Part shown: in pieces, positions 6,693 to 17,433 of the stretch
Layout of the letters: each line of letters opens with the position of its first letter
Position numbering within the stretch: position 1 is the stretch's first letter
Assembly: GCA_964478625.1 (NCBI GenBank)
Contig: CAYZJH010000006.1
Location: 12,543-76,542, forward strand
Length of the DNA: 64,000 nt
Source: an uncultured Desulfobacteraceae bacterium
Lineage (GTDB): Bacteria; Desulfobacterota; Desulfobacteria; Desulfobacterales; SKZT01
Direction of reading: 5' to 3'
Notes under the pieces: generated by a model
Database searches by the model: none
The model's input: the letters and a program-made list of their open reading frames with translations, nothing else
Told to the model about the DNA's origin: nothing
Translations under genes and position numbers: made by a program

Positions 6693-6767
6693 TGGCTGGG
6701 GCGGGAGGATTCGAACCTCCGAATGCAGGAACCAAAATCCTGTGTCTTACCGCTTGACGACGCCCCA
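6693..6767 (-). tRNA. tRNA-Gln (anticodon UUG), CCA encoded
   Basis: The reverse complement TGGGGCGTCGTCAAGCGGTAAGACACAGGATTTTGGTTCCTGCATTCGGAGGTTCGAATCCTCCCGCCCCAGCCA folds as a cloverleaf. It has a 7-bp acceptor stem, anticodon stem CAGGA/TCCTG with loop TTTTGGT, and a GGTTCGAATCC T-arm. Very similar to E. coli tRNA-Gln. Confidence 0.97.
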
Positions 6768-10517: not shown

Positions 10518-11819
10518 ATGACAAGTGATCGACTGCGTGTCTCATCGGGAATCGGAGAGCTGGACCGACTACTCGGAGGACTTTTTATCGGCGATAATGT
10601 GGTCTGGTATGACGATGCCGGAAGCCTTGCTCTGGTTTTTTGTCTCAATTTCATACAAGATTCGCAGTCCCACAACAAACCGATCATTTACGTCAGTTTC
10701 GACAGAAGTCCCAAAAACCTTCTGGAAACACTTGGACCATTGGCACAATATCCTCTGCTCACAATCCTGGACTGCTTTACTCATGGCAAGGGTGAAAGCA
10801 ATGAAGTGTTTTTAAAGTTTTATCAAAACAGGAAAATCAAAGAAACCGGACGCATCATTGCCGTTGAAAATCCGCGAAGCGTGGAAAAAACCATGAACGC
10901 ATTTTATGGAGTCCACGCCAAACTTGAAGGGGATGTCCGGTTCGTTTTTGAAAGCCTTACCGGTATGCAAAAACTCTGGTCAGGGGAAGAGGACATTTTG
11001 AATTTTTACTCCCACTCCTGTCCCCGGCTTTATGAATTAAATACCGTGGCCTATTGGATTATTGAAAAACGTGCTCATTCTTCCAGGCTCAAAGCCCAAA
11101 TCAATCGGGTGGCTCAGGTGGCTGTTGAACTTTCCCTAAAAAGGGGAACAACCACCCTGAGTATTGTAAAAGCTGAAAAGCGACAAACCGACACTCTCAA
11201 TACGCCATTCAAATACTGGACCCAGGATTTATCCATTACGCTTGAATCGGGGAAAAAAAGCACCGGCCGGATCGATCTGGGGACTCGCCTGAAAGATCTT
11301 CGAACCAAAAGAGGATTTTCCCAGACCGAGTTAGCCAAACTGGTGGGAGTGACGCCCTCCAGTATTTCCCAGATCGAAAGCAACCTGATACTCCCCTCCC
11401 TTCCGGCCCTTCTAAAAGTCGCCGAAGTCCTTTCAGTGGAGGTCAGTTCCTTTTTCCAGGACACTCAACATACCACTAACCGGGTAGTTTTTTCCTCATC
11501 CGAATCCATGGATTTCCAACTGAGCGGAATTCCCAAAAACACTGCCATTGCCAAGCGATTGACTCCGGTCGATTTCGACCCAAAGGCAGAACCATTCCTG
11601 ATCGAAATCCCCCCCAAAGAAACATTGCCGTCTCATTTTTTTGTCCACAAAGGTGACGAAATGGGCTACATGCTTACAGGTAACCTGGTGATTAAAATGC
11701 AAAAAACATCCCATACCATCAAGCCCGGAGATCTGATTTACCTGGATTCGGAAATCCCCTTACAATGGAAAAACCCCGGCCCCGGCACTGCAAGAATTCT
11801 TTGGATCAAATTAAAATAA
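10518..11819 (+). CDS. three-domain regulator: KaiC/RecA-like domain lacking a P-loop + XRE-type HTH + C-terminal cupin
   Basis: 433 aa. The N-terminus SGIGELDRLLGGLFIGDNVVWYDDAGSLA resembles the KaiC/RadA entry motif, but GxxGxGKT is absent. The middle LKDLRTKRGFSQTELAKLVGVTPSSISQIESN is an XRE HTH. The end GDEMGYMLTGNLVIKM...PGDLIYLDSEIPLQWKNPG is cupin-like. Confidence 0.7.
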   Translation: MTSDRLRVSSGIGELDRLLGGLFIGDNVVWYDDAGSLALVFCLNFIQDSQSHNKPIIYVSFDRSPKNLLETLGPLAQYPLLTILDCFTHGKGESNEVFLKFYQNRKIKETGRIIAVENPRSVEKTMNAFYGVHAKLEGDVRFVFESLTGMQKLWSGEEDILNFYSHSCPRLYELNTVAYWIIEKRAHSSRLKAQINRVAQVAVELSLKRGTTTLSIVKAEKRQTDTLNTPFKYWTQDLSITLESGKKSTGRIDLGTRLKDLRTKRGFSQTELAKLVGVTPSSISQIESNLILPSLPALLKVAEVLSVEVSSFFQDTQHTTNRVVFSSSESMDFQLSGIPKNTAIAKRLTPVDFDPKAEPFLIEIPPKETLPSHFFVHKGDEMGYMLTGNLVIKMQKTSHTIKPGDLIYLDSEIPLQWKNPGPGTARILWIKLK

Positions 11820-11852
11820 GCCAGGATCAGACAGGAAAATAAACTGATCGAT

Positions 11853-12056
11853 TTGACAATGACACTTTTTTAATTGGTGACCGGCAGCCTTAACCTGACC
11901 CCGATGGGCAAAGCCTGTCCCGGGCATGAACCGGTAGAGCCGGGCACGAAGTGAAGCCTTCAGGAACTATCCATAAGCTGAAACCATCCGGCTGGATGCC
12001 GGCTCCCGGTTTATGCCCGGGACAAGCTTCGCCGGTATGATGTTAAGAACTTTCTC
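11853..12056. repeat. MITE-family composite repeat
   Basis: Contains family modules cctgtcccgggcatgaaccggtagagccgggcacgaagtgaagcc and, inverted, ggctcccggtttatgcccgggacaagcttcgccgg. Boundaries approximate. Confidence 0.7.
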
Positions 12057-12532
12057 CATTTTAAACACATCAATTCAGATGGAAGCTTTTTTCATCCAAA
12101 TTCGCTGATTTTTGTTTTTTAAGAGGTCACAGAGTGCTTATGACAGCTTGTCGGCTAAAAGATCTCACAGATCCCTAACCGGCCATTTTCTTGCTGATCC
12201 TCAGGAGCCAAAGGCTGAGTGCCTGCTTGATGCCAACCAGTCTAACCATATAATATCAATAGAAAATTTCTATCATTATCCCTTATTAACTATTGACAAC
12301 TCAATAGATCAAAGCATAAAACGGAATCGTCCACTAACATGGATTCGGACTGCAAGCAAAAGCAGCCGCAGGGGGAGTTCTGATCTCCATACCGGTATAA
12401 CTCAATTTAGATATTTATAAACGATTCCTTCTTTTTCTAAGGGCAGGGATCGATTCGAGTCTTTTGTAAAATTGATACCATACAAAATAAAATGACGAAG
12501 CCTAACGGTTTCATTGAACCCATTTAAGGCGA

Positions 12533-14608
12533 TTGATGGACAGTTTTCAGGAAATTGGCCGCCTGGCGGATAACAATATTTTGGAAAACAGGCTGGAAAA
12601 AGGCCACAAAATTCACAGGCAATATCTGGTCAATATTTTGAATTACATCAACTTTCAAGACCGGGCGATCCTGATTAAATTTAAACATAAAAAATACAAT
12701 ACCCTGTTCTCACTGGAGGCCGAACCGCTTCCATGTATCAATGAAAAACTGGAATGCTCCTTTTTCGGCTCACCTGAGTTTTTGATGGAGATCCATTTTT
12801 ATGAACTGTTGCACCTGTTGATCAACAATGACCAGAAGATGATCATTGTAAAGCCTGAAATCGAATTGATCACTGAAAACAGAATCCATTTTATTCTCCC
12901 CCAATCCTGCCATGAATTGAATTTCCGCAAAGCACCAAGATATTCTAGCCGTAATATCCATGTCGAATTGATTCAAAACGGTGTATCATTTCGTGGTATT
13001 CTAATCGATTTCAGTTATATTTCCTTTTCTATGAAGCTATTTCCGGATCCATCCCAATCCTTTCAATGGATCAATCCCAGTGCGGTGGTCATGGTCATTT
13101 TCAAACGTGCCCAAGATATTATCTATTCCGGAACCTGTCATGTAATACGTCAGGAACAGGACCATGAATCCATGAAAATTGTCCTCGCACCTGTCGCCGA
13201 CGAAATATCCAGGTTTAAGCCTAAAATGTTCCGGAGTTTCCAGCAAAACCTGATCCCATCCCCAAATATTGTTTTTCGTCATCCTTTGACTGAAAAAACC
13301 ATCAGCATGGATGTATCCGGCCTGTCATGTGCGGACCTGTCATGTGAGGAATACCTTTCAGGAGCATCATTGTTTACGGGATTGATTATTCCCGGCCTAG
13401 ATATCGAGTTTGCACCAAATTTTAAAATCCGATGCCGCGCCCAGGTGGTCAAACGACACACTGAAGGTTCAATGAATCAAAATTCCCTGATTCGATGGGA
13501 TATTTCATTCATAGACATGAATATTCAGGACCAGGTTCAACTCTCCAATTTAATTTACCAGGCAGGAAACCGAAAGACTTATGTGTGTAATCGGCTGGAT
13601 ATGGATGCGCTTTGGAAATTCTTTTTTGATACCGGCTTTTTTTATCCTGAAAAATATTCCCATATCCAGATCAATAAAAATCAGTTCAAGAAGGTATATG
13701 AACGGCTCTATAATCATCACCCCGAAATCGCCCATCATTTTGTATTTCAGGATAAAGGTTCCATATATGGTCACATTGCCATGATCCGTTTTTACGATAA
13801 AACGTGGCTGATCCATCATCATGCAGCCAAAGGTCCGTCCCTGAAAAAAGCCGGGCTTATGGTGTTGAATCAAATCGGCCGGTATATCAACGATTTTTCC
13901 TGGCTGCACTCAACCCACATGCAATATGTCATGTGTTATTACCGCCCTGAAAACAAATTTCCGAACCGTATTTTCGGGGGGTTTGCGCTCTATTTGAACA
14001 ATCCGGGAAGATGTTCCGTTGATGAACTGGCCTATTGCTATTTTCCTGAAACCCATGGTTCACCGGATTCTCTTGAATCTTTTTTGGCGGATTCCGCAAC
14101 CAGCATTGAAAAAACTTGCATTGATGATATTCTTGCCCTGAACAATTTCTATCAAGGGATATCAGGCGGGCTTTTGCTGGATGCCCTGGACCTTAAACCC
14201 GGATCCTTCAACAAAAATGACCTTGGGCAAAAATACCGGCAACTTCATTTCAAACGGGAAAAATATGTGTTCTCTCTGAAGATCGACCGGCGATTGAACG
14301 CAGTGATTATGTTGACCTTGTCGGATATCGGTTTGAATTTATCCAACCTGACCAATTGTTTCCATGTAATCGTAATGGATTCGGAGACCCTTTCTGCCGA
14401 TATTTTGGTTTCCTCATTGCAGTTATTGGCAATGAATTATTCCTGTGCAGCCATGCAAAGCACTCCGGTGCTGATATATCCTGAAAGGTATGCGCAGAAT
14501 AAACGGCTTTTACAGGACAAATCCTACAAGGTTTGGGTTTTTGATATCCGTTATAGTGATCAATATTTTCAGTATATGGCTGATATTTACCCTTCCCATT
14601 CAGCTTGA
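12533..14608 (+). CDS. large hypothetical protein with two degenerate PilZ-like segments and an unassigned C-terminal half
   Basis: 691 aa. RKAPR (RxxxR) is followed 22 residues later by DFSYIS. A second DVSGLS lies about 100 residues downstream. Both have Ser where canonical PilZ has Gly in D/NxSxxG. Sits 29 bp upstream of the HD-GYP gene. Confidence 0.5.
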   Translation: MMDSFQEIGRLADNNILENRLEKGHKIHRQYLVNILNYINFQDRAILIKFKHKKYNTLFSLEAEPLPCINEKLECSFFGSPEFLMEIHFYELLHLLINNDQKMIIVKPEIELITENRIHFILPQSCHELNFRKAPRYSSRNIHVELIQNGVSFRGILIDFSYISFSMKLFPDPSQSFQWINPSAVVMVIFKRAQDIIYSGTCHVIRQEQDHESMKIVLAPVADEISRFKPKMFRSFQQNLIPSPNIVFRHPLTEKTISMDVSGLSCADLSCEEYLSGASLFTGLIIPGLDIEFAPNFKIRCRAQVVKRHTEGSMNQNSLIRWDISFIDMNIQDQVQLSNLIYQAGNRKTYVCNRLDMDALWKFFFDTGFFYPEKYSHIQINKNQFKKVYERLYNHHPEIAHHFVFQDKGSIYGHIAMIRFYDKTWLIHHHAAKGPSLKKAGLMVLNQIGRYINDFSWLHSTHMQYVMCYYRPENKFPNRIFGGFALYLNNPGRCSVDELAYCYFPETHGSPDSLESFLADSATSIEKTCIDDILALNNFYQGISGGLLLDALDLKPGSFNKNDLGQKYRQLHFKREKYVFSLKIDRRLNAVIMLTLSDIGLNLSNLTNCFHVIVMDSETLSADILVSSLQLLAMNYSCAAMQSTPVLIYPERYAQNKRLLQDKSYKVWVFDIRYSDQYFQYMADIYPSHSA

Positions 14609-14637
14609 ATAGGGTTTTCGGGATAAGGTGAAGCAAG

Positions 14638-16668
14638 ATGGAATCTATCGATGATCAACCCCTGTACAGCAGCAGAATCATTAATACCTATATCAAATTG
14701 CTTAAAAAGCGATACAGCTTTATTAATGTGGGAGAGCTGTTAAAAAAATCTGAAATGAAATCGTATCAGGTAGAAGATGAAGGTCACTGGTTTACCCAGA
14801 AACAGGTTGATCTTTTTTATGAAAATGTCAAAAATCTCACCCGCAATAAAAAAATAGCCAGAGAAGCCGGCCGTTATGCTGCTTCACCCGAAGCTTTGGG
14901 AATAATGCGTCATTTTATTCTCGGATGCGTGGAGCCTGCGACCGCCTATCTGATGCTTGAAAAAGCGGTTCCCAATTTTACCAAATCCTCCACCTTTAAA
15001 GTGAACCAAATCAATTCTTCAGCAGTGGAAATTATCGTTGAAACCATAAACGGATTCTGTGAAAAACCCTACCAGTGTGAAAACCGAATTGGCTACATCG
15101 AAGCCGTATCGCTGATATTCAACTATCGTTTGCCCAACGTGAAGCATCCTGAATGCATGTTTAACGGAGGAAAAGTCTGCAGATATATCGTGTCATGGAA
15201 AAGATCCCGTTCTGCAATTTGTAAAAGAATCAGAAACGGTGTCACCATCCCGATGCTGACCGTATGTGCGGCAACGGTTTTTATGCTTCCGGATGTCGCA
15301 TTACCCCTTGTATTGAGTTCCCTTTTTATTTTTCTATTGCTTTCCCTTCGTGCCGAATGTTTAAAAAAAAATGAATACCAATTTGCGTTAAACTGTCTGA
15401 TGGGCTCCAGCGACAAACTGTTAAACCAGATCAACATCAATTATAACAATGCCATGCTGGCCAATGAACTTGGCCAGTCCATCAATAAAAAACTGAGTGT
15501 CGAGGGTGTTGCCAACGAAGTCATTCAGGTAATCCAAAAACGGCTGGATTTTGACCGGGGGATCATCTGGATGGTGGATAAAGCCCAAAATAAACTGGTT
15601 TTCCAGTCCGGGTTCGGTTACACGGAAAAACAGCTGGATACGCTGATCAAAACAGAGTTTCATCTGGATAATCCGAAATCTAAAGGTGTTTTCGTCCTTT
15701 GTGTTCTGAAAAAAAGACCTTTTCTGATCAACAATGTGGATGATATCGCAGAATCGCTTTCCCCCAAGAGCCTGGAATATCTGAAACTATTGGAAAGCAC
15801 CTCCTTTATCTGCTGTCCCATTATCTATGAAGGTGAGGCCTTGGGGATTTTTGCAGTGGACAATGTTAAAAACAAAAGACCATTGTATCAAAGCGATATG
15901 AGTCTTCTGATGGGAATCGCTCCGGAAATCGGAATCAGTATCCATAACGCCACCCTGATTGAGTCCAAAGAGCGCCAGTTCAAATCGATCCTGCAAACAC
16001 TCGCTGCCAGCATTGATGCACGTGACCCTCTGACGGCCGGTCATTCCGAACGCGTCACACAATACTCACTTGGTATATGCCAGGAAATGAATCTTGCCGA
16101 AACCTTTTGTGAAACCATCAAAGTGGCCGCATTGCTTCATGACTATGGAAAAATCGGTATCAGTGATTCAATCCTGAAAAAGAAAGAAGCCCTGACCCCC
16201 GAAGAATATCGGCAAATTCAGACCCATGCTGAAAAATCGAGACGAATCCTGGAACAAATTAACTTTGAAGGCATCTACAGTGCGGTTCCGGATATAGCCG
16301 GATCCCATCATGAAAAATTTGATGGATCCGGATATCCCCATAACCTCAAAGGAGATGAGATCCCCTTAGGTTCCAGAATCATTGCCGTTGCTGATGTTTT
16401 CGAAGCCATCACATCCAAACGCCACTATCGGAATCCCATGCCGGAAGATATCGCTTTGGGCATCATTGCCCACCAGAGTGGAAAGCATTTTGACGGCGAA
16501 ATTGTACAGGCCTTTTTCCGGCATTACAATAAATTGAGAACAGGAGAAAACCGCCAGATTGATCTTTCAGTCAACCTGGAAAAAATAAGAAATGGAGGCG
16601 ATTTATCCAAAAGGCTTACGACCTTTGCATATAATCAGCGGAGTATAGGTAAATCTTCCGGGGTCTGA
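14638..16668 (+). CDS. membrane-anchored GAF / HD-GYP c-di-GMP phosphodiesterase with an N-terminal sensor-like domain
   Basis: 676 aa. The N-terminal ~190 aa is an unassigned domain ending HPECMFNGGKVCRYIV. Then a hydrophobic stretch (TIPMLTVCAATVFMLPDVALPLVLSSLFIFLLLSL), a GAF-like region, and HD-GYP motifs HDYGKI and HHEKFDGSGYP. Confidence 0.85.
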   Translation: MESIDDQPLYSSRIINTYIKLLKKRYSFINVGELLKKSEMKSYQVEDEGHWFTQKQVDLFYENVKNLTRNKKIAREAGRYAASPEALGIMRHFILGCVEPATAYLMLEKAVPNFTKSSTFKVNQINSSAVEIIVETINGFCEKPYQCENRIGYIEAVSLIFNYRLPNVKHPECMFNGGKVCRYIVSWKRSRSAICKRIRNGVTIPMLTVCAATVFMLPDVALPLVLSSLFIFLLLSLRAECLKKNEYQFALNCLMGSSDKLLNQININYNNAMLANELGQSINKKLSVEGVANEVIQVIQKRLDFDRGIIWMVDKAQNKLVFQSGFGYTEKQLDTLIKTEFHLDNPKSKGVFVLCVLKKRPFLINNVDDIAESLSPKSLEYLKLLESTSFICCPIIYEGEALGIFAVDNVKNKRPLYQSDMSLLMGIAPEIGISIHNATLIESKERQFKSILQTLAASIDARDPLTAGHSERVTQYSLGICQEMNLAETFCETIKVAALLHDYGKIGISDSILKKKEALTPEEYRQIQTHAEKSRRILEQINFEGIYSAVPDIAGSHHEKFDGSGYPHNLKGDEIPLGSRIIAVADVFEAITSKRHYRNPMPEDIALGIIAHQSGKHFDGEIVQAFFRHYNKLRTGENRQIDLSVNLEKIRNGGDLSKRLTTFAYNQRSIGKSSGV

Positions 16669-17433
16669 AAAAAACCGGTTGAATTCAAAAAGAAATTCAT
16701 CATAACCCTTTTCATATTCATCAAAGCGATAGCCGATTTTTTGAGAGGCCACCTCAATCTTTTTACCCCAATTATAGGCATCCTTCTGGTGTAACTGGCC
16801 GAAAATCAAATGGTGCGCCGTTATTTTCACATCAATATCCATAAACCCCAACCGATAGAGGTGGGAATATAATTTGCGACCCGCAAACGGATCAAAGTCA
16901 CTGCAATTTTCCAGGGATGTCATGAGCGAAAACACTGTCTTTTCAAGTCTTTTCGGAAGACCATAATGACTGAGGCAATTATGGTCCAAATCGATAAGGC
17001 AAAGAATTCCACCCGGCTTCACAAGCTTCGATAGATTGTTTACAATGTCAAAGGATGTTTTTCTGAAATATTCCAACATGAACCTGACCCACACAAAATC
17101 AAACACCCCCAAATCGGTCAGATCTTTTCGGATATCCCTGCAAAAAAATTGTAAACCGTTTTTTCCGTAGGTTCTTTCAGCGTATTCGATTCGATCTTGT
17201 GACAAATCGATACCGACAACCGCTCCATCAGGACTGACAAGATTATGGAGCGCATGGGTGGTTTTTCCTGAACCACAACCGATATCGGCAACCTGCATTC
17301 CTGTCCGGATACCCGCCCATACGGCCTGATCAGCAACAGACCGGCAATCCGTTTTGATGTTCAAGCGGGTTATCTCTTCCATGTTTTCCATGAGATATTC
17401 ATTCTGAAACATTTTGAAAGATCCCTCTACCAT
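16603..17433 (-). CDS. class I SAM-dependent methyltransferase
   Basis: 276 aa; SAM motif I VADIGCGSGKTT and downstream VVGIDLS. The 3' end overlaps the convergent HD-GYP gene by 66 bp. Confidence 0.8.
   Translation of the reverse strand: MVEGSFKMFQNEYLMENMEEITRLNIKTDCRSVADQAVWAGIRTGMQVADIGCGSGKTTHALHNLVSPDGAVVGIDLSQDRIEYAERTYGKNGLQFFCRDIRKDLTDLGVFDFVWVRFMLEYFRKTSFDIVNNLSKLVKPGGILCLIDLDHNCLSHYGLPKRLEKTVFSLMTSLENCSDFDPFAGRKLYSHLYRLGFMDIDVKITAHHLIFGQLHQKDAYNWGKKIEVASQKIGYRFDEYEKGYDEFLFEFNRFFSDPGRFTYTPLIICKGRKPFG

Follow-up and report, generated by a model that had tools for sequence, protein, structure and literature searches.

What might a PilZ-like protein and a membrane phosphodiesterase, encoded side by side, control through c-di-GMP? 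This question is raised by a gene pair in a 64,000-nt stretch of DNA (the window) from an uncultured Desulfobacteraceae bacterium. A preliminary description identified two same-strand genes here, and both open reading frames were recovered, together with every peptide string quoted from them. Gene 1 (12536..14608, + strand) encodes 690 aa from an ATG, gene 2 (14638..16668, + strand) encodes 676 aa, and 29 bp (14609-14637) separate them. An AAGG 6 nt before the ATG at 12536, and a database protein (P0001) of the same 690-aa length, make this ATG the likely start of gene 1 in place of a TTG at 12533. Gene 2 has its own ribosome-binding site, with AAGGTGA preceding its ATG.

On the ORF list and gene calls for the identical contig, the intergenic region upstream (11820..12535) measures 713-716 bp rather than the roughly 475 bp first given. 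It contains a promoter-like site at 12227-12254 (a consensus match only), and an Rfam search of it returned nothing credible and no c-di-GMP riboswitch. The corresponding region of the closest relative (L006) is only about 250 bp long. The AT-richness earlier noticed by eye is real but mild, with a GC content of 42.2% at the locus against 45.5% for the window (2.3rd percentile among equal-sized windows). As a flanking methyltransferase gene has the same GC content and the neighbouring genes are housekeeping genes, the bias does not argue for recent acquisition.

A conserved module with a methyltransferase

Judged by their relatives, genes 1 and 2 are real genes rather than chance open reading frames, since a database search at E ≤ 1e-3 gives 1486 relatives of gene 1, and relatives occur in 371 species genomes. 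The family forms more than 1000 clusters at 50% identity and ranges over Desulfobacterota, Nitrospirota and anammox Planctomycetota, and a literature search found no paper on it. Synteny was counted at 57 informative loci, defined as those with at least 3.2 kb downstream. A methyltransferase lies near gene 1 in 55 of these and a gene of the gene 2 type in 43 (both in 42 loci, methyltransferase only in 13, gene 2 type only in one, neither in one), while the flanking genes beyond the module vary. The two-gene module originally proposed stands in that the pairing with the gene 2 type is kept across phyla, but gene 1's most constant neighbour is the methyltransferase, which fell outside the span first considered. 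What the window carries is a single representative of a module conserved across phyla, which has three genes and, in many genomes, a fourth.

The methyltransferase gene (16603..17433, - strand, 276 aa) encodes a class I SAM-dependent enzyme (Pfam Methyltransf_25/31/11/12) with no NCBIfam equivalog. In the PDB the enzyme comes closest to an uncharacterised archaeal enzyme and to juvenile-hormone acid methyltransferase, and it has no informative close homologue. In distant relatives it is 51-65% identical, against 41-48% for gene 1 in those same relatives. The gene is convergent with gene 2, their 3' ends overlapping by 66 bp, so it is not co-transcribed with genes 1 and 2. A FadL/TodX outer-membrane channel (Pfam E 1.3e-65) is adjacent in about 22 loci belonging to Planctomycetota, Nitrospirota, Geobacterales and Syntrophobacter; the 64,000-nt window contains no FadL gene.

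PilZ-type barrels and a tandem-GNAT half in gene 1

The AlphaFold2 (AF2) model of gene 1 (pLDDT 85.3, pTM 0.76) consists of three beta-barrel domains followed by a tandem-GNAT half. Its Foldseek matches in the PDB, all at probability 1.0, form two groups, namely c-di-GMP receptors (MrkH, VCA0042/PlzD, MotI, YcgR and PP4397) and tandem-GNAT acyl-CoA transferases. The N-terminal barrels resemble PilZ receptors of the YcgR/MrkH/PlzD type, with TM scores of 0.60 to YcgR (5y6f) and 0.62 to PP4397 (3kyf) over about 210-225 columns, a match not resolved to individual barrels. Structure prediction thus bears out both the PilZ-like character first assigned to gene 1 and the guess that its C-terminal half, joined to these barrels, has an acyltransferase fold.

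Domain A (12605..12919, + strand; aa 24-128, from AF2 secondary structure) is taken to occupy the PilZN/xPilZ position; it has no c-di-GMP motifs and no Pfam match. PilZ-1 (12920..13204, + strand; aa 129-223) carries RKAPR (R131-R135) and, 22 residues on, DFSYIS (D158-S163). Its RxxxR is intact here, as it is in 81 of 82 relatives. Across the family the second motif reads [D/E/N]x[S/N]xxS, Gly never being present in the 82. The Pfam PilZ match to this barrel is weak (E 0.22, profile positions 3-77). PilZ-2 (13205..13573, + strand; aa 224-346, with a C-terminal helix at its end) has RxxR in 78/82 relatives and the canonical [D/N]xSxxG in 75/82. The window clade, however, is one of only 3 in 82 with GxSxxD in its place, and the second Arg of RxxR is also gone, leaving the degenerate motifs RSFQQN and GLSCAD. 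Both PilZ motifs had been described as having Ser for the canonical Gly, which holds for DFSYIS; DVSGLS (259-264) is out of register with the true PilZ-2 motif, where the aligned residues are GLSCAD (262-267). Pfam PilZ matches PilZ-2 at aa 292-342 with E 0.11, and gene 1 scores 13.2 bits, below the threshold of 22.5, whereas 22 of 33 family members are matched (best E 1.9e-8).

Because the best-conserved PilZ motif of the family, that of PilZ-2, is lost, binding of c-di-GMP appears less certain for the window protein than for its family, and the ligand, if bound, must use the RKAPR/DFSYIS site of PilZ-1. It is possible, although we think it unlikely, that this protein no longer senses c-di-GMP, its barrels being degenerate interaction modules and the enzyme constitutive or otherwise regulated. 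The lost PilZ-2 motifs, the sub-threshold Pfam score and the missing Gly of PilZ-1 (a family-wide feature) would all fit such a loss. Against it stand the intact RxxxR, the retention of an intact HD-GYP gene with its own ribosome-binding site immediately downstream, and the precedent of Myxococcus PixB. This PilZ-PilZ-GNAT protein, which requires its acetyltransferase domain, is reported to bind c-di-GMP even though its PilZ domains are without a conserved second-motif residue (PMC8316039).

The GNAT half is covered by no Pfam or NCBIfam model, and GNAT Pfam models match none of 33 family members. Foldseek aligns it over 295-377 columns with VipF, the glucosamine N-acetyltransferase of C. acetobutylicum and a clavulanate-pathway tandem GNAT, and over the same range with two further two-lobed acyl-CoA transferases, N-myristoyltransferase and histidine acetyltransferase. 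In the first lobe (13574..14059, + strand; aa 347-508), beta4 (TWLIHHHAA), a loop and a helix (AGLMVLNQ) take the motif-A position (AF2 elements E423-431 and H439-454). The segment HHAAKGPSLKKAGLMVLNQ (428-446), previously thought faintly reminiscent of GNAT motif A, does span strand beta4, the next loop and helix alpha3 of this lobe in the model. The motif-A loop reads AxRSxxxxAG, not the canonical Q/RxxGxG/A. The second lobe (14060..14605, + strand; aa 509-690, from AF2 and Foldseek), from which a P-loop-like motif is absent, probably binds the acceptor.

Conservation is high in both lobes. In the first, between 78 and 82 of the 82 relatives retain H401, H413, R418, H427-429, Y468, R470, N473, R478, S494 and D496. 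In the second, 80-82 retain D531, D597, N601, T606 and K662, while Y664 and W667 persist in 78-79. In total, some 30 polar positions in the GNAT half, occupied by His, Arg, Asp, Tyr, Asn and Ser, are nearly invariant across phyla, as expected for an enzyme, and almost every one of the 150 best family clusters retains full length. Gene 1 is a probable c-di-GMP-controlled acyltransferase. It would not be the undescribed kind of enzyme first suggested, as c-di-GMP-linked acyltransferases are already precedented by PixB (PMC8316039) and by HfsK of Caulobacter (PMC5362036).

The acceptor could instead be protein, with c-di-GMP regulating an acetylation of lysines or N-termini by gene 1 in the manner of PixB or the cAMP-GNAT enzymes of mycobacteria, the methyltransferase unrelated or itself protein-modifying, and no small-molecule product. 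N-myristoyltransferase acylates proteins, as VipF reportedly does, and in some gene 1 relatives (P0021) a Ser/Thr protein kinase is fused on, a hint of signalling at the protein level. The domain logic of PixB (PMC8316039) also agrees with this idea. We nevertheless consider it rather improbable, as the tight adjacency of the methyltransferase across phyla and the recurrent FadL/TodX channel would be unexpected, and the other top fold matches act on small molecules (glucosamine, histidine and a clavulanate intermediate).

A predicted sensor-linked phosphodiesterase in gene 2

Gene 2 comprises, in order, an H-NOX-like domain, a membrane hairpin, a GAF domain and an HD-GYP domain. The GAF (15493..15945, + strand; aa 286-436; Pfam GAF_2 E 5.2e-12, GAF E 1.5e-10) and HD-GYP (16003..16503, + strand; aa 456-622; Pfam HD_5 E 2.8e-42) assignments agree with those made earlier, and the HD, HHE and GYP motifs are intact (HDYGKI 501-506, HHEKFDGSGYP 557-567). 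The transmembrane segment noted before corresponds to one hydrophobic stretch at about aa 203-238 (15244..15351, + strand; Kyte-Doolittle profile) with a central Pro-Asp. With AF2 helices at 191-216 and 218-269 around it, we read it as a two-helix membrane hairpin.

The N-terminal domain (14638..15207, + strand; aa 1-190; AF2 pLDDT 86.6), originally left unassigned, is modelled as a fold of the H-NOX/V4R class and is read as haem-less. Its top 38 Foldseek matches are all H-NOX proteins or H-NOX-bearing soluble guanylate cyclase subunits (best, 4u9b, TM 0.74), followed by Bet3, MopR and VirS, which bind lipids or aromatic compounds. C147, H170, C173 and C181 are invariant, preserving a Cys3His zinc motif; the closing cysteine pair is C173-x7-C181 and not C-x10-C as first given. 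The S. oneidensis H-NOX protein shares the aligned H-x2-C-x7-C pattern. The haem ligands appear to be absent from gene 2. These matches, the shared pattern and hosts that include anammox bacteria, for which NO is an intermediate, would suit a true haem H-NOX coupling NO or O2 to c-di-GMP, as in H-NOX/HaCE circuits, with no product feedback. We regard this as improbable. An hhalign comparison with Tt H-NOX (probability only 49%) places Val at His102 and Glu at Arg135, V..T..E replacing the haem-propionate motif Y-x-S-x-R. No conserved His is present in the family alignment in the segment paired with the proximal-His helix, Pfam HNOB does not match the domain, and its weaker relatives are V4R, MopR and AraC-type ligand-binding domains.

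The sensor and GAF domains remain next to the methyltransferase also in loci whose output is instead a histidine kinase (L033, L047, L055), and in Geobacterales the HD-GYP protein acquires a PilZ domain of its own.

A proposed c-di-GMP-gated pathway

The initial reading of a receptor/effector with a degrading enzyme is consistent with the predicted folds and the conserved pairing, but it omitted the methyltransferase, and the PilZ-2 motif is lost in the window protein. We propose, with about even confidence, that a c-di-GMP-gated acyltransferase works with the methyltransferase while a ligand-sensing phosphodiesterase sets the signal. Gene 1 would be a soluble enzyme whose tandem-GNAT half moves an acyl group from acyl-CoA onto an acceptor, its YcgR-like stack of PilZ-type barrels making this activity c-di-GMP-dependent, and the methyltransferase would methylate the same substrate or product. 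The FadL/TodX channel beside many relatives suggests a hydrophobic pathway compound, either a small molecule or a lipid. Gene 2, anchored in the membrane, would reduce c-di-GMP, with its haem-less H-NOX/V4R-type and GAF domains tuning its activity to a ligand; possibly this ligand is the pathway product, which would close a feedback loop.

A non-catalytic tandem-GNAT scaffold, with gene 1 a YcgR/MrkH-like adaptor whose c-di-GMP-bound form binds and regulates the methyltransferase or gene 2, would accord with the non-canonical motif-A loop, the absent GNAT Pfam matches and the protein-protein contacts through which many PilZ proteins work (PilZ reviews), but is quite unlikely given the near-invariant polar residues, more typical of an active site, and the retention of full length. 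On the proposed acyltransferase pathway, the module probably ties the biofilm second messenger c-di-GMP to acylation and methylation chemistry.

Fold and c-di-GMP motifs of the gene 1 protein

Genes 1 and 2 belong to a module that is real, conserved and uncharacterised. In the ORF list, both reading frames lie on the forward strand where the preliminary description had placed them (gene 1 at 12533/12536-14608, gene 2 at 14638-16668), with the 29 bp spacing it gave, and every peptide string it quoted was found in the translated genes. Gene 1 is likely to start at the ATG at 12536, ahead of which lies a Shine-Dalgarno-like AAGG, and the database protein identical to its product (P0001) has 690 residues. 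The homologue search returned 1486 relatives at E<=1e-3; relatives are present in 371 species-representative genomes, and the family is strongly conserved across its full length. A profile search with the C-terminal half gave 1058 clusters at 50% identity. Nearly all of the 150 listed are about 680 residues long with an identical layout, and no differing domain context that might hint at function appeared among them.

Pfam and NCBIfam together gave only a sub-threshold PilZ match for gene 1 (PF07238, 13.2 bits, under the gathering threshold of 22.5), NCBIfam having none, and the family alignment profile matched nothing at E<=10 among PDB sequences, so that structure prediction was needed. The AlphaFold model built on an alignment of 33 relatives (pLDDT 85.3, pTM 0.76), a check suggested in the preliminary description, contains PilZ-like barrels and GNAT lobes: three beta domains (residues about 24-128, 129-223 and 224-346) precede a pair of alpha/beta lobes (347-508, 509-690). 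Foldseek comparison with the PDB gave two groups of matches, all at probability 1.0. The first comprises the two-barrel c-di-GMP receptors MrkH, PlzD/VCA0042, MotI, YcgR and PP4397 (TM up to 0.62), and gives the N-terminal half a beta-barrel fold like that of PilZ receptors (model pLDDT 85). The second consists of two-lobed GNAT enzymes. No significant similarity was found by hhalign among the three barrel sub-domains or between the two GNAT lobes, with shallow profiles (Neff about 3).

Motif counts were taken across 82 loci. The first PilZ domain keeps its RxxxR in 81 of the 82 (R131-K-A-P-R135 in the window protein), and its second motif reads [D/E/N]x[S/N]xxS family-wide, never with Gly. 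RxxR is present in the second PilZ domain at 78 loci, and the canonical [D/N]xSxxG at 75. An exception is formed by the window protein and those nearest to it, which have RSFQQN and GLSCAD at these places and hence RSFQ at the RxxR position. DVSGLS, read in the preliminary description as a PilZ motif, does not fall in the register of the family motif. The Pfam PilZ model matches 22 of 33 relatives at E<=1 (best E 1.9e-8), and the PilZ-2 segment of one relative, scored alone, reaches 22.9 bits. Judged on these motifs, the gene 1 family is very probably a c-di-GMP receptor family, and we consider binding of the nucleotide by its members likely.

For the window copy, the alternative that c-di-GMP sensing has been lost carries some weight. 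Neither of its PilZ domains contains [D/N]hSxxG (DFSYIS in the first, GLSCAD in the second), and compared with the YcgR-type receptors this motif is altered throughout the family in PilZ-1 and lost in the window PilZ-2. PilZ-1 (RKAPR ... DFSYIS) is plausibly the only remaining candidate site, and the chances that this copy binds c-di-GMP seem to us evenly balanced.

In the C-terminal half, the two-lobed GNAT fold aligns over 295-377 columns (Foldseek E 6e-8 to 2e-6) with VipF, 5kf1, 2wpw, N-myristoyltransferase and 9en3; the enzymes matched include a clostridial (C. acetobutylicum) glucosamine N-acetyltransferase, a clavulanate-pathway tandem GNAT and histidine acetyltransferase. These acyl-CoA transferases share the two-lobed arrangement over about 300-370 columns at 9-11% sequence identity, and none carries a PilZ fusion. 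The HHH strand and the other residues specific to the gene 1 family are not known to us from any of these enzymes. Because no GNAT Pfam family matches any of 33 family members at E<=1, this half is, by its predicted fold, a tandem-GNAT family that lacks a domain model. The segment described at first as faintly resembling GNAT motif A (428-446) does coincide with the motif-A position in the AlphaFold model, where it forms strand beta4 (TWLIHHHAA), a loop and helix alpha3 of the first lobe. The beta4-alpha3 loop (430-439) reads AKGPSLKKAG in the window protein and AAxRSxxxxAG in the family consensus; its place in the model is correct, but it departs from the canonical Q/RxxGxG/A.

The preliminary description knew of no c-di-GMP-gated enzyme of this kind, but a PilZ-gated GNAT has been described in PixB (PMC8316039), and a c-di-GMP-linked one is reported in HfsK (PMC5362036). 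PixB (MXAN_2604) of Myxococcus xanthus is a PilZ-PilZ-GNAT protein that binds c-di-GMP in vitro and whose acetyltransferase domain is needed for function; its substrate is not known, and its authors cite cAMP-regulated mycobacterial acetyltransferases as an analogue (PMC8316039). Gene 1 might likewise encode a PixB-like protein acetyltransferase, and the two proteins are indeed alike in having two PilZ domains N-terminal to a GNAT-type acetyltransferase and in their non-canonical PilZ motifs (PMC8316039). They differ in that PixB is described with a single, Pfam-recognised GNAT, whereas that of gene 1 is a two-lobed tandem of about 340 residues undetected by Pfam; the RxxxR motifs are about 210 residues apart in PixB (R121, R331) and about 100 in gene 1; PixB is reported to be conserved in close Cystobacterineae relatives only, whereas the gene 1 family spans several phyla; and PixB is not reported to partner with a methyltransferase or an HD-GYP protein (PMC8316039). 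Gene 1 also has an extra N-terminal barrel. Motif spacing, Pfam detectability and taxonomic range, which set gene 1 apart, were taken from the description of PixB. HfsK of Caulobacter crescentus reportedly responds to c-di-GMP although it lacks a PilZ domain, and modifies holdfast polysaccharide. It resembles gene 1, by description, as a c-di-GMP effector of the GNAT acyltransferase family, and its title and the start of its abstract mention no PilZ domain (PMC5362036).

A further alternative is that the GNAT half is a non-catalytic adaptor. YcgR, PP4397, MotI/DgrA, PlzD (VCA0042) and MrkH share with gene 1 successive beta-barrels and an Arg-rich linker (TM 0.60-0.62 to YcgR and PP4397), and receptors of this type act through partner binding. 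They are, however, stand-alone PilZN/xPilZ-PilZ adaptors of about 220-250 residues, whereas gene 1 has three barrels and an output with an enzyme fold. Around 30 polar residues of the GNAT half are nearly invariant across phyla, among them H401, H413, R418, H427-429, Y468, R470, N473, R478, S494, D496, D531, D597, N601, T606 and K662, which favours an enzyme over a scaffold. Catalytic activity of this half is somewhat better than an even prospect.

The predicted sensor phosphodiesterase encoded by gene 2

Gene 2, with a Shine-Dalgarno-like AAGGTGA ahead of its ATG at 14638, carries the GAF and HD-GYP domains first recognised by eye, both of which Pfam confirms (HD_5, E 2.8e-42; GAF_2, 46.6 bits against a cutoff of 28.6; GAF, 42.1 against 22.4). 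The HD, HHE and GYP motifs are all present and the phosphodiesterase motifs are intact (HDYGKI at 501-506, HHEKFDGSGYP at 557-567). The protein thereby resembles the PmGH-family GAF-HD-GYP phosphodiesterases in its core and in its full set of catalytic motifs. A GAF-HD-GYP architecture class is listed in an HD-GYP survey, in which term searches turned up no N-terminal domain like that of gene 2 (10.1101/2021.11.05.467447).

The 190 N-terminal residues match nothing in Pfam or NCBIfam, and a single-sequence PDB search gave chance matches only. A homologue search returned mostly fragments, which were used for building an alignment; the model made with 31 sequences has a pLDDT of 86.6. Foldseek ranks H-NOX proteins first, with TM scores (normalised to the target) of 0.70-0.74 for those of S. 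oneidensis (4u9b, 0.74), K. algicida, T. tengcongensis (Tt) and Nostoc, and the matches extend to the H-NOX-bearing subunit of soluble guanylate cyclase. Alignment with Tt H-NOX by hhalign covers 149 columns at E 1.8e-4 and a probability of 49%, the Tt sequence having been supplied by hand rather than from a database record.

C147, H170, C173 and C181 are invariant in the 31 sequences, and the cysteine pair first described as C-x10-C is in fact C173-x7-C181. The family segment HpeCifkGgevCrY (H170-x2-C173-x7-C181) is matched in a profile alignment to HdtCmhtGadhC, which we take to be the zinc site of the S. oneidensis H-NOX protein. Some H-NOX proteins have a C-terminal Cys3His zinc site, and a pattern of this type is present in the gene 2 domain in the same alignment. 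The haem determinants fared differently. Val111, in a column that is not conserved, stands opposite the proximal His102 of Tt H-NOX (hhalign 49%, hand-supplied Tt sequence), and the family alignment has no conserved His in the proximal-His segment. The Y-x-S-x-R haem-propionate motif is also missing, with V134, T136 and a near-invariant E142 opposite Y131, S133 and R135 in that same alignment (49%, hand-supplied sequence). On its sequence, therefore, the domain is without haem determinants, which speaks against a true haem gas sensor in gene 2 despite its H-NOX-like fold.

After the N-terminal domain comes a hydrophobic stretch of 36 residues, interrupted in the middle by Pro-Asp, which would form a membrane hairpin; GAF and HD-GYP follow. 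In bacteria, H-NOX usually occurs as a separate haem protein that acts on partner enzymes. Gene 2 is like the H-NOX-controlled c-di-GMP enzymes in tying an H-NOX-fold sensor to c-di-GMP turnover, but differs in carrying the domain in cis, through the putative hairpin, and without haem ligands. More distant fold likenesses, scoring below H-NOX, are to sensors of hydrophobic ligands: V4R, MopR (a phenol sensor, crystallised with phenol), the ligand-binding domain of VirS and AraC-type domains (PF12625), together with Bet3/TRAPPC3 (crystallised with covalent palmitate, according to the PDB descriptions). No model reaches its Pfam threshold; a weak V4R match falls on the zinc-motif segment of one relative, and some relatives are labelled PF12625 or 'hydrocarbon binding protein'.

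Conserved neighbourhood and variants of the module

Neighbourhoods were sampled at 80 loci of other genomes and in Kuenenia, and neighbours were tallied at the 57 with enough downstream sequence. Gene 1 has as its most constant neighbour a 270-residue class I SAM methyltransferase, placed tail-to-tail with whichever gene precedes it; the window copy (16603-17433, reverse strand) shares 66 bp with the end of gene 2. Both a gene of the gene 2 type and the methyltransferase lie beside gene 1 at 42 of the 57 loci, the methyltransferase alone at 13, the gene 2 type alone at one and neither at one. Gene 1 and the methyltransferase, usually with the sensor phosphodiesterase, are thus linked across phyla. 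The expected co-occurrence of genes 1 and 2 holds in most loci, but the pair is not complete and the methyltransferase is the more constant partner.

Methyltransferase identity is 51-65% in relatives whose gene 1 is at 41-48%. Between the two 3' ends the spacing mostly runs from -72 to +150 bp (median about 9 bp); 35 of the 39 loci that have gene 2 fall in this range, as do 21 of the 22 that lack it. Conservation of this convergent arrangement across phyla (16603-16668 in the window; L007, L016, L080 and most other loci) is unusual, shared termination and antisense interference being possibilities. The window enzyme scores above the Pfam thresholds for Methyltransf_25, _31, _11 and _12 (Rossmann-type SAM-binding domain) and matches no NCBIfam equivalog at cutoff. 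Among proteins of solved structure, those closest to it are an uncharacterised archaeal enzyme, juvenile-hormone acid O-methyltransferases and phosphoethanolamine N-methyltransferases. A role in making mid-chain methyl-branched fatty acids was considered, as the taxa overlap, and was dropped, its sole support being a sub-threshold CMAS match on the SAM-binding core.

A FadL/TodX outer-membrane channel (E 1.3e-65) adjoins at about 22 loci in Planctomycetota, Nitrospirota, Geobacterales and Syntrophobacter; none is encoded within the 64-kb window. A gene for a B12-binding radical SAM protein lies directly beside the methyltransferase at five loci (L004, Kuenenia, 14090-15454; L013, L037, L043, L052), and in Kuenenia a FadL/TodX gene follows it. 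In a small clade (L049, L054, L058, L062, L082) no methyltransferase and no gene of the gene 2 type was found beside gene 1, some contigs ending within about 2 kb downstream. In four of these, gene 1 is followed by two other conserved small ORFs (clusters c33 and c36); in L058, where the contig ends 829 bp downstream of gene 1, only c36 was found.

Both principal genes vary among relatives. Gene 2 orthologues of 761-802 residues occur in Geobacterales (L023, L038, L044, L063, L065, L066, L068, L070, L074, L078, L084), and the sole one scanned (L023, 4005-6299) has an extra, canonical PilZ domain C-terminal to HD-GYP (E 2.8e-12); it would be a c-di-GMP phosphodiesterase carrying its own c-di-GMP receptor domain. 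In Desulfobacterales and Nitrospinaceae MAGs (L033, 3382-6261; L047; L055) the H-NOX-like sensor, hairpin and GAF are joined to PAS-HisKA-HATPase-REC in place of HD-GYP. These histidine-kinase variants still adjoin the methyltransferase, and the sensor rather than the output seems to be tied to the module. Gene 1 relatives of about 1200 residues in Syntrophobacter MAGs (P0021, P0246; L009, L013) have an N-terminal NERD and Ser/Thr kinase fused to the PilZ-tandem-GNAT part, the kinase resembling PglW in PADLOC. The closest GTDB relative (L006, 74% identity) is labelled Flavobacteriaceae and L014 Candidatus Methanoperedens. In both cases the label has the look of a binning artefact, because the other hosts of the family are Desulfobacterota, Nitrospirota and Planctomycetota.

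A defence role was rejected, since PADLOC places gene 1 in no defence family, its mad2 match of the methyltransferase spans the SAM-binding core only, and its PglW and PD-T4-6 matches are confined to the kinase fusion of a relative. The non-coding DNA upstream of gene 1 measures about 715 bp rather than the 475 bp first estimated. The region had also been called AT-rich, which calculation bears out only mildly (42.2% GC against 45.5% for the window, 2.3rd percentile). A horizontally acquired AT-rich island was rejected because GC lies no more than about 2 SD low, the surrounding genes have housekeeping functions (serA, PRPP synthase, ribosomal protein L25, peptidyl-tRNA hydrolase), and the flanking synteny partly recurs in relatives. 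Rfam found no riboswitch in the upstream region or the whole window, where its sole match at the gathering threshold is a tRNA gene (6696-6767, reverse strand), and a promoter and terminator scan gave nothing above chance. Upstream of gene 1, 10518-11819 on the forward strand encodes a 433-residue protein whose N-terminal region weakly resembles KaiC/RecA and which also has HTH_3 and Cupin_2 domains. It has a relative in the matching position in L006 and may be a local regulator.

A candidate c-di-GMP-to-metabolite circuit

The domain assignment of the module is held with high confidence, and suggests how its parts could work together. Binding of c-di-GMP to the PilZ stack of gene 1 would gate the tandem-GNAT acyltransferase, and the methyltransferase would work on its substrate or product. 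That this compound is a hydrophobic small molecule or lipid is a tentative suggestion, made because the FadL channel recurs, relatives of the sensor fold bind lipids or aromatics, and the sensor appears membrane-anchored. The sensor phosphodiesterase would reset c-di-GMP; feedback through the sensor, perhaps in response to the compound, is doubtful. Combined, these steps would have the module make and sense an acylated, methylated hydrophobic compound (lipid or diffusible signal), with c-di-GMP-triggered synthesis, outer-membrane passage through the FadL-type channel and readback by the haem-less H-NOX-like domain driving c-di-GMP hydrolysis, a scheme that we think unlikely to hold in its entirety.

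We found no description of the gene 1 family or of its tandem-GNAT output, nor of the methyltransferase that almost always accompanies it or of the H-NOX-like/hairpin/GAF/HD-GYP architecture. Term searches of the HD-GYP survey and of two surveys on PilZ met with no mention of them, and a literature search by Kuenenia locus tags returned nothing. Two domains missed by current profile libraries are now defined, namely the tandem GNAT and the haem-less, zinc-motif H-NOX-like sensor fused to GAF-HD-GYP or histidine kinases.

Effectors of c-di-GMP with enzymatic output are few, PixB being the closest precedent. The gene 1 family is much larger than that of PixB, is very conserved and has informative partners (the methyltransferase, a dedicated sensor phosphodiesterase and, in many cases, a FadL-type channel), and the chemistry behind the c-di-GMP output is therefore directly testable. 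Its hosts are aggregate- and biofilm-forming anaerobes (anammox bacteria, sulfate reducers, Geobacter relatives and Nitrospirota) in which, to our knowledge, c-di-GMP outputs are barely known. Were the compound reading true, these organisms would have in common a self-limiting circuit from second messenger to metabolite, and a non-haem H-NOX-fold sensor would have its first assigned ligand class. The module offers a tractable route to the chemistry of a c-di-GMP output in environmentally important anaerobes.
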